Notes under the pieces: model-generated
What the model was told of the DNA's origin: nothing
The model's input: the letters and a program-made list of their open reading frames with translations, nothing else
Databases searched by the model: none
Source: Coraliomargarita sp.
GTDB taxonomy: Bacteria; Verrucomicrobiota; Verrucomicrobiia; Opitutales; Coraliomargaritaceae
Assembly: GCA_965216325.1 (NCBI GenBank)
Contig: OZ244160.1
Coordinates: forward strand, 2,272,001 to 2,336,000
Direction of reading: 5' to 3'
DNA: 64,000 nt
Part shown: piece by piece, positions 794 through 4,217 of the stretch
Numbering within the stretch: position 1 is the stretch's first letter
How the letters are laid out: each line of letters opens with the position of its first letter
Translations under genes and position numbers: made by a program

Positions 794-1516
794 TATGATC
801 GTAAAGAGGGGTGACGCAGGGCGCAGCCCTAGCGTTGCCCCTCTCGACTGGGTATGCCCGGCATGTTGTTAAAGTTATGGGGTGTAAGTCCCCTGTGAGT
901 ATGTCCAACATAACAATCAAATCACTAGTGAAGCACAAGGGCGAAGTCGTGAGGCTTTCGTCCGGAAGCAGTGTGGATCAAAGACATGAGCCGATGAACA
1001 AAAACGTCATAGGAGGCATGTGCAATGGGATGAGCGGGCCCAGGATCGCAAAGTCCTTTGGACCGGTTGCATGTGTAAATGGCGCGGTTGTGTGTCGACG
1101 GTTTAACAGCTTATCCGGGGAGGCCTCGAACTGTGGCTTGAGAGGGCTTCAATGTGCCAATCATCTCTCTGGCACGCCTGATAGTAATGTCAGGCGTATC
1201 GCAGTTGGAGGAGTCAGCAGACGGCATAGTAGCCGCGGAGACGAGCTTGCCAGAGGCAGGACGGACTCACGAAGCGGTGAAGGCCTGAAGTCGATCATCA
1301 TCGGGACTCATTCAGTAGACACGTCCATAAACGCCGACCGTAGCGCGAGGACCTCTGATCTCTGTTTGATACAGCTCGAAGATACGTCTACTTTTGTAGG
1401 CGCGACAACCGCCTTAAAACAGACTGCGTAGCACTGCGATCAGTCTGGCTGCGGACCCGCATGGCAGGTGGTGTGGGAGGTGGCGTCGGTAACGGCGTCA
1501 CCTACTCGATTTCTGC
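794..1516 (-). repeat. attC7 (794-851 plus 1511-1516), interrupted by intron 1
   Basis: Reconstituted minus strand GCAGAAC-CAGTC-GAGAGGGG...CCCCTC-TTTAC-GATCATA. Confidence 0.8.
852..1510 (+). mobile_element. ORF-less group IIC intron (intron 1), 659 nt, inserted in attC7
   Basis: 5' GTATGCCCGGCATG; domain I blocks shared with intron 2 (GTCGTGAGGC, GATGAACAAAAAC, GGGAGGCCTC); DV/DVI-like end GGTGGTGTGGGAGG...TACTCGAT; removal restores CTGG|TTCTGC. Confidence 0.85.
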
Positions 1517-1956
1517 TCCTTTAGTCCCATCATGTAGAGCTTTCCCTCGGATACTCCTAAGACGTAGCTCCAGCCGGTTTTAGAACCATTCCCTAAAGGA
1601 AGCTCCTTCGAATACTTAACTTCAACCATTTTATATGGTGTAGGATTCGAGATGAAGGTTTTCCCTTCTAATTCTATGGGTTTGCTCATCCCTTCCTTCA
1701 TCGTTGGGTAGATTTCATGGAATCTGGATTCTCCGATGCCCTGTTCTTTTAATTCTTTTAGCCCATCTAGCGTCTGCGAGAAGAGTTTCGGTGGTGTGTC
1801 TTGCACTAGCCAGATGCTATCCAGCTTCCCTTTTGAGAAGTCGCCTTGCTGTATGAACGCTTTAAATCGCTCAAGGAATTCTGTTTCCATTTTCTCTGAT
1901 GCGTAGCCGCTCAAAGAGATTAAGACTGCGGTGAGGGTGATTAGGATGTGTTTCAT
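1498..1956 (-). CDS. Cassette 7: secreted hypothetical protein
   Basis: 152 aa, signal peptide-like N-terminus; stop codon lies inside intron 1. Confidence 0.75.
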   Translation of the reverse strand: MKHILITLTAVLISLSGYASEKMETEFLERFKAFIQQGDFSKGKLDSIWLVQDTPPKLFSQTLDGLKELKEQGIGESRFHEIYPTMKEGMSKPIELEGKTFISNPTPYKMVEVKYSKELPLGNGSKTGWSYVLGVSEGKLYMMGLKEQKSSR

Positions 1957-2015
1957 ATTCTTTCGCAGAACGTCGAGGATGAGCGACGGCGTAGCCGTTG
2001 CTCAATCCGGCTGGG

Positions 2016-3921
2016 GTGTGCCGAGCATGCGCTCGATGTAAAAGTGGTTAAAGTCTGCTATAGTAAGAACCTAATCATAAAATGAAAGAACTATTACCAG
2101 ATGCCAAGGGCGTTGTCGTGAGGCAGGGTCTGAAGGAAGGCTATGGGAAAGCTGCGAGCTGATGAACAAAAACTGCATAGAAGGCCGACGTGGTCTGGTG
2201 AGCTGGCACCACACAGCGAAACCGCTAGGTTCAGCCACGCAGGTAAATGCAGCAGTTGTGCAGCGGAGCATCGAGTGCTTACCTCGGGAGGCCTCAGCGA
2301 GTGGCATGGGTTGGCTTAAAGGTGTCAGTCAAGCCCATGCACCTGAGTCAGTAATGACACAGGCGGCACTGGTTGAGGAGTCAGCAGCGAGCATAGTAGT
2401 CATGGAACCGCGAGCCATGAGTAGGTCGATAGGCCGAAGAGCATGGAGGTCTCGAACGTGATGAAGGCTCAAACCGTATATGGGCAGTCCGACCCGCAGG
2501 CAGGTTCACCTCTCACTGGCACAGACCCGTGTCGAGAGCTGGGCGATGTTTGTGCAGGGAAGCATGGGGCTGCCGAGCAAGAACTACTGGAGTTGATGCT
2601 GGACCGCGCTAATCTGAACGCAGCTTGGCGGCGTGTGCGCAGCAACGGTGGAGCTTCTGGCATCGACGGTATGTCGATCGAGGACTTTCTGCCGTTTGCG
2701 CGCGAGCACTGGTCACGGATCGAGACTCAACTGAAAGAGGGAACCTACCAGCCAGCCGCGGTGCGCCGCGTCTGGATACCGAAGGACAATGGGGAGAAGC
2801 GCCCACTGGGCATCCCCACGGTGTTGGATCGTGTGATCCAGCAAGCCATCGCTCAGGTAATTGCGCCGATCTTTGAGGCACAGTTCAGTGAGCACAGCTT
2901 CGGCTTTCGTCCAGAACGCCGAGCCCATGACGCAGTCAAGTCGATCCAAAGCGCAGCCGCCAAAGGTCACGTGTACGCGGTCGATTGTGACCTGAAGTCA
3001 TTCTTCGACACGGTCGATCATCGTGAATTGATGCAGCGTCTAGCGCGCCGGATCAAAGACGGGCGCGTGCTGCGCCTGATCCACCGCTACCTCAAGGCAG
3101 GCATCCGCTTGCCTGATGGCAACACCGAGGCAACCGCCGAGGGGGTGCCACAGGGGGGACCGCTCAGTCCGCTACTGGCCAATATCATGCTCGATGACCT
3201 CGACCATGAACTCGAACAACGCGGGCACCGTTTCGCACGCTACGCCGACGATTTTGTTATCGTCGTCCAAAGCAAGCGAGCGGCTGAGCGCGTGATGCAC
3301 AGCATCAGTGGCTTCATCGAAGCGAAGCTCAAACTGATCGTGAATCGCGAGAAAACGAAGGCGGGTCGGCTGACACAGTGCAGCTTCCTCGGATTCGTGA
3401 TCTCGCCCAAGCGTATCCGCTGCTTGGATACCAAACTGCACACGTTCAAGAAGACCATCCGTCAAATCACCTGTCGCAGTTGGGGCATCTCCATGGAGGA
3501 ACGCCTCGAACGTCTACGACTGTATGTGAATGGCTGGCTGGGTTACTTCGCTATCGGTGTGCCGTTCAAGGATATCCGCAGCATGGATCAATGGCTACGA
3601 AGGCGTGTGCGCTTGTGCTACTGGAAACAGTGGCGTTTACCGCGCACGCGCTACCGCAAGCTACGCGCGCTTGGGATCAACCCGAAGACGATTAAGCAGG
3701 CTAGTCGTTGTCGAAAAGGCTACTGGCGCTGCAGCAAACTGCGAGTGGTCAGTATCGCGATGAACAACCAATGGCTCGCCGAACAAGGCTGCCCCTCAAT
3801 CAAAGAACAGTGGCTCAAACTCTGCTATCCAAACGGATAGCTCTAACGGAACCGCCGTGCTACGGAGCCGTATGGCCGGTGGTGTGGGGGCGGGAGTCAG
3901 TGATGGCTCCCGCTACCCGAT
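2016..3921 (+). mobile_element. Group IIC intron with RT/maturase (intron 2), inserted in attC6
   Basis: 5' GTGTGCC; DV GAACCGCCG...CGGTGGTGT with CGC triad; DVI ending ACCCGAT; RT ORF inside. Confidence 0.92.
2443..3840 (+). CDS. Group II intron reverse transcriptase/maturase without endonuclease domain (start may be 2461 or later)
   Basis: RPLGIPTVLDR, GVPQGGPLSPLLANI, RYADDF and X-domain motifs. Confidence 0.95.
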   Translation: MEVSNVMKAQTVYGQSDPQAGSPLTGTDPCRELGDVCAGKHGAAEQELLELMLDRANLNAAWRRVRSNGGASGIDGMSIEDFLPFAREHWSRIETQLKEGTYQPAAVRRVWIPKDNGEKRPLGIPTVLDRVIQQAIAQVIAPIFEAQFSEHSFGFRPERRAHDAVKSIQSAAAKGHVYAVDCDLKSFFDTVDHRELMQRLARRIKDGRVLRLIHRYLKAGIRLPDGNTEATAEGVPQGGPLSPLLANIMLDDLDHELEQRGHRFARYADDFVIVVQSKRAAERVMHSISGFIEAKLKLIVNREKTKAGRLTQCSFLGFVISPKRIRCLDTKLHTFKKTIRQITCRSWGISMEERLERLRLYVNGWLGYFAIGVPFKDIRSMDQWLRRRVRLCYWKQWRLPRTRYRKLRALGINPKTIKQASRCRKGYWRCSKLRVVSIAMNNQWLAEQGCPSIKEQWLKLCYPNG

Positions 3922-4217
3922 TCTATATTTTCATTTGAACCATCGGGTAAGATCTTAATTGCTCGAAAGCCACTCCAACAAAGGCTTATCACGATGGCCG
4001 AGGTGATCGCTGTGATCAATGCATTGGATATGGCTTTCCCAATGATGAGACCTTTCATTTCTTTCGTTAGATCAGGTTCAAACGAAGACAACTCAGCATA
4101 AGCTTGAAGTAACCCTCCAGTTATGAAGTAGCCGAAAACGAAAATCGCGAACAACAGAACCCCTTTAGCTAGAAGGCAGAAGGCGACTTTTATCGTTCTG
4201 TTAATTTCTTTTTTCAT
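3897..4217 (-). CDS. Cassette 6: small two-TM membrane protein
   Basis: ATGAAA start just after core site; two hydrophobic helices; stop lies inside intron 2. Confidence 0.7.
   Translation of the reverse strand: MKKEINRTIKVAFCLLAKGVLLFAIFVFGYFITGGLLQAYAELSSFEPDLTKEMKGLIIGKAISNALITAITSAIVISLCWSGFRAIKILPDGSNENIESGSGSHH

Follow-up and report, generated by a model that had tools for sequence, protein, structure and literature searches.

Two group IIC introns that very probably enter attC sites one nucleotide apart in a cassette array of Coraliomargarita

Group IIC introns choose their DNA by its shape and by a very short guide. Two such elements, very probably of the attC-homing kind, lie close together in a stretch of 64,000 nucleotides (the window, from whose first base the positions below are counted unless a genome coordinate is given) of contig OZ244160.1 from Coraliomargarita sp., whose genome (G000) is a single contig of 3,064,510 bases (3.06 Mb). 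The closest described systems are the IIC-attC introns of integrons. According to PMC7923331, these insert at the R'' box on the bottom strand of attC and run counter to the cassettes, and 'the majority' of them lie in TTGT/T (intron-binding sites IBS1/IBS3; a slash marks the insertion point throughout). The same paper records them also in attC clusters devoid of an integron integrase (CALINs), notes a best hit to a Verrucomicrobia reverse transcriptase (RT), and states that no group IIC intron has ever served as a gene-targeting vector. A monophyletic attC lineage, bacterial introns without an open reading frame (ORF) that are rare and occur alongside related full copies, and bacterial twintrons are described in PMC3001079 and PMC4424553. 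For a IIC retroelement solved by cryo-electron microscopy, PMC10190682 places exon-binding site 1 (EBS1) at A184–G187, preceded by C183 and paired with DNA positions −1 to −4, and lets EBS3 (A231) pair with the T after the insertion site.

The reading that we consider highly probable is that both window elements belong to the attC-homing clade of group IIC introns, located one nucleotide apart in the R'' box of attC bottom strands and targeted through a slid EBS1. For comparison we used three introns of the S.ma.I2 type from class 1 integron plasmids, which occupy the attC sites of aadA1, blaIMP-4 and aadA11 on NZ_MF564290, NZ_CP124701 and NZ_LT882698. These share with the Coraliomargarita introns the RT clade, antisense insertion into the attC bottom strand between gene and hairpin, an 8-nt EBS1 loop whose positions 3–6 pair with the exon, and a T as IBS3; the second window intron shares their GT/T register as well. 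They differ in RT sequence (only 47–49% identity to the window families) and in guide, EBS1 being ACAA for TTGT in the plasmids, whereas here ACCA and CCAG serve a CTGG-type attC family. Further differences are that here the first intron cuts one base upstream (G/TT), that ORF-less and nested copies are present, and that the host, judged by the nearest RT relatives, is marine and belongs to the Verrucomicrobiota. Homing to attC, with its variants, is thus established in marine Verrucomicrobiota, beyond the Proteobacteria of most published examples.

Measured against the TTGT/T consensus, the second intron keeps the register but uses TGGT/T, and the first uses CTGG/TT, one base upstream. This departure speaks against the first intron as a typical member of the clade and not against its membership; it is a register-shifted variant of a known lineage and involves no new mechanism. 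Terminator-homing IIC introns (B.h.I1, the Oceanobacillus iheyensis intron and the E. rectale intron of PMC10190682) have the same ribozyme class and the same rule of hairpin, spacer, 4-nt IBS1 and IBS3, but their target is a transcription terminator followed by a T run and their RTs belong to another clade. As in the group II twintrons of bacteria and archaea reviewed in PMC4424553, an intron here homes into an intron outside housekeeping genes; unlike those, the nested arrangement arises because two lineages use a common DNA target with an offset of one base, and the inner intron lies after the first nucleotide of the outer. Our literature search found no description of a twintron in an integron or of the G/TT register, and it left out the tables of target motifs (PMC2747902, PMC2714756, J Mol Evol 2009); the G/TT register cannot be called unreported.

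The two introns and their attC sites

The features on which the comparison rests are these:

796–851, + strand: attC bottom-strand hairpin of the last cassette and 5' exon of intron 1, with IBS1 CTGG at 848–851
852–1510, + strand: intron 1 (I1_win), ORF-less group IIC-attC intron of 659 nt, 5' GTATG, 3' CGAT (RF02001, RF01998)
1034–1049, + strand: EBS1 hairpin of intron 1, stem GCGG/TCGC, loop GCCCAGGA (1038–1045), EBS1 CCAG at 1040–1043 (Rfam alignment, model positions 88–106; covariation)
1439–1507, + strand: predicted domain V (about 1439–1472) and domain VI (about 1475–1507, bulged A 1504) of intron 1, from the minimum-free-energy fold of the last 80 nt
1511–1517, + strand: 3' exon of intron 1, TTCTGCT, the remainder of the attC R'' box (G/TTCTGC)
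1967–2015, + strand: attC bottom-strand hairpin and 5' exon of intron 2, final four bases TGGG at 2012–2015
2016–3921, + strand: intron 2 (I2_win), full group IIC-attC intron of 1906 nt, 5' GTGTG, 3' CGAT (RF02001; genomic copies)
2202–2217, + strand: EBS1 hairpin of intron 2, stem GCTG/CAGC, loop GCACCACA (2206–2213), EBS1 ACCA at 2208–2211 (Rfam alignment; covariation)
2443–3840, + strand: intron-encoded reverse transcriptase/maturase of 465 amino acids (Pfam RVT_1 1e-42, GIIM 1.8e-15)
3851–3919, + strand: predicted domain V (about 3851–3883, 2-nt bulge) and domain VI (about 3885–3919, bulged A 3915) of intron 2, from the minimum-free-energy fold of the last 80 nt

The attC sites were found with an nhmmer profile made from 13 of this genome's own sites, not from a curated attC model; it replaced a regular-expression scan that had yielded no arrays. 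Each site in the window bears the motif xGAAC-GT.GAG ... CG.CTG-GTTC on the + strand, which is therefore the attC bottom strand, with the cassettes on the minus strand. Both introns are accordingly antisense to the cassettes and directly follow an attC hairpin, as the original prediction had it, and this orientation, in the attC bottom strand and opposite to cassette transcription, was seen at all 8 of the 8 intron-holding attC sites. The hairpin at 796–851 can be aligned with 12 other attC sites of the genome (nhmmer E 5e-8). Folded as DNA, 794–851 reaches −18.8 kcal/mol (z −5.6) with CTGG unpaired, and 1965–2015 reaches −12.8 kcal/mol (z −2.8); the other hairpins among the five sites folded gave z values of −2.5 (5336–5395), −1.3 (5728–5785) and −1.0 (4221–4292).

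The ends of intron 1 (852, GTATGCCCGG ... CTACTCGAT, 1510) come from comparison with 4 other copies of its family, and the flanks CGACTGG/ and /TTCTGC bear out the predicted insertion at CTGG/TT, on which 4/4 complete family junctions agree. On the + strand RF02001 (group II D1-D4-3) matches 943–1109 with 110 bits and RF01998 matches 1173–1285 with 52.8 bits, over its cut-off; the intron contains no RT ORF. Comparison of genomic copies likewise gave the ends of intron 2 (2016, GTGTGCCGAG ... CTACCCGAT, 3921), in which RF02001 matches 2112–2277 (127 bits, + strand) and RF01998 matches 2340–2427 below cut-off (28.8 bits). Of the six group II domains, parts of I–IV are recognised by RF02001 and RF01998, and V and VI are predicted by the minimum-free-energy folds. 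Group IIC introns are marked by a short EBS1–IBS1 pairing of 3–4 bp, the lack of EBS2, an upstream stem-loop and an RT that has no endonuclease domain; seen here are a 4-bp EBS1–IBS1 pairing, an upstream hairpin and, in intron 2, an RT with only RVT_1 and GIIM. Pfam gave no other family at E<=0.01 in the intron 2 RT, and thus no endonuclease domain. IIC RTs are known to lack this domain (PMC10190682); the comparison is between the window RT and this general trait, not with the plasmid introns.

Loop–exon covariation and the reverse transcriptase clade

Introns with both a loop and a 5' junction were taken from G000, 80 loci of the genome_contigs set, the three class 1 integron plasmids and 30 loci found in 401 genomes belonging to the phylum of G000. 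This resulted in 93 introns, 91 of them with an 8-nt loop, and 54 distinct loop/exon combinations. Loop positions 3–6 and exon positions −4 to −1 form on average 3.39 of 4 pairs (G·T counted), perfectly so in 30/54 combinations. None of 2000 shuffles of the loops among introns reached 3.39 (shuffled mean 2.01, maximum 2.44), a count that overstates the significance, as kin among the 54 combinations are not independent. The other four loop offsets gave 1.48–2.0 pairs, and an exon window offset by one base or by two gave 1.8 and 1.72, equal to background. Individual pairings were as follows:

Class 1 integron introns (L124–126): EBS1 ACAA, 5' exon TTGT (/T)
Intron 2 and six relatives (L044, L049, L052, L133, L134, L136): EBS1 ACCA, exon TGGT
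I2-like intron in genome G306: EBS1 TCCA, exon TGGA/T, a compensatory change
Intron 1: EBS1 CCAG, exon CTGG
One ORF-less copy of intron 1: EBS1 CCGG, exon CTGG (G·T)
I1-like introns of genome G291: EBS1 CAAG (2) and CCAG (1), exons CTTG and CTGG, 3/3 at G/TT

On the target string C-T-G-G-T-T, the intron 2 loop GC-ACCA-CA pairs with T-G-G-T and the intron 1 loop GC-CCAG-GA with C-T-G-G. The CCA common to both occupies loop positions 4–6 in intron 2 and 3–5 in intron 1, and since loop position 3 always faces exon position −1, a guide displaced by one letter displaces the cut by one base. The layout matches that of EBS1 in the cryo-electron microscopy structure (PMC10190682). The two hairpins at 1034–1049 and 2202–2217, named beforehand as carrying CCAG and ACCA, are thus upheld as EBS1 by Rfam alignment and by covariation. 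The further proposal that two lineages retuned EBS1 to this attC family holds insofar as each tetrad complements its own exon; the pairing of ACCA with TGGT is shared with relatives in other genomes, and its tuning did not take place in this one.

The most likely pathway would begin with the intron RNA and its RT recognising the folded attC bottom strand, the attC hairpin substituting for the terminator hairpin of other IIC introns. EBS1, at positions 3–6 of the 8-nt domain I loop, would pair with IBS1, the four bases just past the hairpin, and one further nucleotide, a putative EBS3, with the next base, T. Reverse splicing would occur between IBS1 and that T, and, given that there is no endonuclease domain, copying of the DNA would presumably start from a replication primer. 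Intron 2, with ACCA, would enter TGGT/T, the published GT/T register, and intron 1, with CCAG, would enter CTGG/TT one base upstream. An attC filled by intron 1 reads CTGG-G/TATG and still resembles a target of intron 2, one copy of which has entered such a site and formed a twintron. The ORF-less intron 1 of the window would need the RT of a full-length copy, presumably by mobilisation in trans. The pair can be seen as a natural swap experiment, in which two related introns have the same hairpin target, a guide slid by one letter and a cut slid by one base, and it offers testable rules for retargeting IIC introns (compensatory changes; tolerated mismatches at −1 and −3).

The RTs were placed in two unrooted trees without bootstrap. 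For the first, 82 frames of at least 380 amino acids, plus the RT of the full-length copy I1c added separately, were reduced to 59 rows by dropping near-copies and analysed by a quick search under LG+C20 on 448 columns. I1c, I1d and I2 fell together with the three introns of class 1 integrons in one clade of 20/59 rows with a Shimodaira–Hasegawa-like approximate likelihood ratio (SH-aLRT) of 98; this clade held all GT/T and G/TT introns and 0 of 31 terminator-type rows. One row, L066, had an artefactual long branch. The second tree, of 71 rows (32 hand-chosen from the earlier 59 and 39 metagenome loci), recovered the same attC clade with 49/71 rows (SH-aLRT 96). The RT phylogeny called for in the original prediction therefore places both introns with those of class 1 integrons.

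In the second tree the G/TT rows comprised the I1 lineage, L129rc beside it in an unsupported placement, and a separate pair, L186 and L205 (SH-aLRT 98), L205 being counted on its 5' junction alone, its 3' end not having been found. By this tree the G/TT shift has arisen at least twice, and it is not confined to this genome. The register had been thought unusual, and it does depart from the TTGT/T consensus given in PMC7923331; it nonetheless recurs in G291 and in the metagenome introns L186 and L205. G291, from another genus of the same family, has three I1-like copies, G360 holds I1-like fragments of 84–85% identity, and a metagenome contig encodes an RT 79% identical to that of I1c, with the 3' junction CGAT/TTCGG and its 5' side lost at the contig end.

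Copies elsewhere in the genome and competing explanations

The genome holds three intron families, those of intron 1 (I1) and intron 2 (I2) and a third of the terminator type. The I1 family consists of two full-length, two ORF-less and one 5'-truncated copy. Its register is CTGG/GTATG...CGAT/TTC at 4/4 complete junctions, and the truncated copy ends CGAT/TTCTGCC. The I2 family has five copies of 1906 nt each, with 0–11 differences, and junctions CTGGT/.../T in 3/5 and CTGGG/.../T in 2/5, one of the latter being the window copy. Since an uninterrupted attC reads CTGGTTC, I1 lies at G/TT and I2 at GT/T. Mapping the other copies thus returned the expected registers; the claim that intron 2 inserts one base later, at TGGT/T, is borne out in 3/5 genomic copies and fails in the window itself, where base 2015 is G and the junction reads CTGGG/TCTATA.

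The one-base offset is seen directly in a twintron at G000:C1 550,372–554,175 (loci L014 and L037), which reads gactgg-G-(I2, 1906 nt)-TATGCCCGGCATG. The inner copy, I2_e (550373–552278), lies between G1 and T2 of the full-length I1_c and is one of the two TGGG/T copies. Because I2_e is identical over 1906 nt to I2_c (2762929–2764834), which occupies a different site, TGGT/T next to intI in another array, sequence comparison suggests that the I2 movement, and with it the nesting, is recent. Among the genome copies, none of I1 was found in a site already filled by I2.

The ORF-less I1 form is a mosaic that has either spread or exchanged sequence after losing its ORF, because domain IV is shared while the 5' parts match different copies. 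Domain IV of I1_win is 99.4% identical to that of the second ORF-less copy over 176 columns, and its first 120 nt are closest to I1_c (91.6%). In the other ORF-less copy (G000:C1 2845060–2845711) the first 240 nt are 99–100% identical to its full-length neighbour (2846339–2848230), 630 bp off. On a metagenome contig, an I1_win-like intron has 1357 bases in place of 1286–1406 and corresponds to a full-length relative. The RT frames of the full-length I1 copies (L037:2104–3897 and L038:107–1972) remain open far upstream, through the ribozyme.

Several observations weigh against the reading of two functional, guide-directed attC introns. The spliced joints 851/1511 and 2015/3922 were absent from all contigs of four sequencing runs, and no contig of these runs carried the empty form of the two cassettes; two RNA-library contigs cover only 3488–3878 and 3553–3792 and show neither ribozyme transcription nor splicing. 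In the I1 RT frames an ATG is missing at the position of the I2 RT start. The Rfam domain V/VI family gave no match at E<=0.1 in either intron, so that domains V and VI rest on the minimum-free-energy folds. I2_win has a G·A mismatch at −1, adjoining the splice site, and on a metagenome contig I2 follows CGCCTTGT (CTTGT), with a mismatch at −3; the kinship within the covariation set has been mentioned. Because mismatches occur at −1 (2/5 I2 copies) and at −3, EBS1 pairing is not strict, and hairpin and spacer may weigh equally.

From such tolerance one could argue that the complementarity of loop and exon is incidental, the hairpin and protein alone choosing the target and the true EBS1 lying elsewhere, and PMC1702495 does have IIC introns needing a stem-loop besides IBS1. 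We regard this as very improbable, as the covariation is specific to loop positions 3–6 and exon positions −4 to −1, compensatory pairs exist in both lineages (CAAG/CTTG versus CCAG/CTGG, and TCCA/TGGA versus ACCA/TGGT), and the position agrees with the solved IIC retroelement (PMC10190682). The offset itself might also be an artefact of how the ends were drawn, both families using G/TT, with the T before I2 being intronic and the intron ending in GA; in the 3 copies with TGGT/...GAT/T, a leftward move of the two ends by a single base does give back the same attC. The chance of this is close to nil in our estimate: two I2 copies have G rather than T before GTGTG; within the twintron, the host I1 (G + TATGCCCGG) stays whole only if the ends are GTGTG...CGAT; an end-to-end alignment of I1, I2 and 60-odd relatives gives GT(G/A)(T/C)G...CGAT; and the I2-like intron at TGGA/ has a matching EBS1, TCCA.

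A more serious alternative concerns the activity of the two window copies only and not the targeting rule. I1_win could be a defunct derivative left by a deletion, and I2_win an old copy disabled by the mismatch at −1, their matches then recording past events. I1_win indeed has no ORF, I2_win is the most diverged I2 copy (10–11 differences to the four others, 7 of them private) with its mismatch beside the splice site, and the contigs of the four runs contain no spliced junction. On the other side, the RT frame of I2_win is intact at 465 amino acids, I1_win still has its predicted domains V and VI as well as EBS1/IBS1 pairing without mismatch over 4 bp, the full-length I1 copies could supply RT, and the ORF-less form, present in two places with the same domain IV, would have spread or recombined after ORF loss. 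Immobility of the window copies is therefore a substantial possibility to which we give somewhat less than even weight.

Beyond slid-guide targeting, the two families might form a nested parasite pair, in which an I1-filled attC recreates the I2 target (TGGG/T) and I2 stacks on I1, with the CTGGG junction of the window and an insert at 4272–4283 as scars of stacking and subsequent intron loss. We consider this rather unlikely; if true, intron turnover would continually remodel and immobilise cassettes in these arrays. The CTGGG junction may instead come from insertion into a site with G-G-T or from a T>G substitution afterwards. Against deriving CTGGG/I2/TCTATA from a twintron that lost its outer intron, a crossover in the shared CGAT/T ends would give TT and not the single T seen, unless the attC had one T, and no I1 sequence follows I2; such an origin may nevertheless stand beside the other two.

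The insert consists of 12 extra bases, ATGGCTCCCGAT, at 4272–4283 (+ strand), at the precise position where an intron would insert in the next attC (hairpin 4221–4292). Ten of the 12 bases are identical to the 3' strand of I2 domain VI, and the insert closes with CGAT/T; the 10-mer is found 3 more times in the genome, where a random 10-mer would be expected about 6 times. Going by the sequence match, the insert may be a remnant of an I2-type 3' end, left by intron loss or an aborted insertion, or may be due to chance. It may also be ordinary sequence, because natural variants with G-A-T in place of G-T-T at R'' occur in several attC sites (window 6189–6262; G000:C1 819391, 1302452, 2765241 and 2848969). 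A regular-expression search of the genome for other short intron remnants gave noise only.

Array setting and other elements of the genome

Seven attC-like sites lie within 796–6251, separated by short minus-strand ORFs without Pfam families. Besides the features given above, the array contains:

1498–1956, − strand: cassette ORF between the introns, 152 amino acids, no Pfam family
4789–4838, 5338–5389, 5730–5779 and 6189–6251, + strand: four more attC sites, intron-free

Uninterrupted attC sites read CTGGTTC, for example CTGGTTCTCG and CTGGTTCGGC. The array is flanked by slyX (578–790) and by haem-synthesis genes (6942–10476). Pfam identified no integrase family among the 15 flanking ORFs of the array, and the integron integrases that exceed the TIGR02249 cut-off, three in number, are encoded elsewhere in the genome, at 0.81, 2.77 and 2.85 Mb. 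The region forms the end of a cassette array of the integron type and, as an integrase was not found nearby, of the CALIN type.

The third intron family, of the terminator-homing type, comprises 6 full copies and another 4 that share one internal deletion in the ORF. Every one of the ten lies after a terminator hairpin at TTGT/ (for example 1096170–1098083), and a 109-nt 5' fragment is present at 490295. Its EBS1, ACAG, pairs with TTGT when the 5' end is set at TTGT/GTGCG; a 5' end at TTTTT/GTGTGCG was rejected as two bases off, judged by relatives and by EBS1 pairing.

All 10 copies of the attC introns are on the locally G-rich strand, a placement that fits insertion into the lagging-strand template. 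Terminator-type introns occupy the G-rich strand in 8/10 copies, the other two being at the switch around 1.1 Mb. The cumulative GC skew climbs over 0–1.09 Mb and 1.81–3.06 Mb and declines in the part between them, which makes the arms very unequal.

A 2.56-kb element encoding a tyrosine recombinase (Phage_integrase) and an IS91-family Y2 transposase is present in three copies that are 99.6–99.7% identical (G000:C1 2841912–2844471, 815791–818324 and 1299778–1302318, ends approximate). Each copy begins directly after an attC hairpin ending in CTGG, making this a third type of element at the same attC position.

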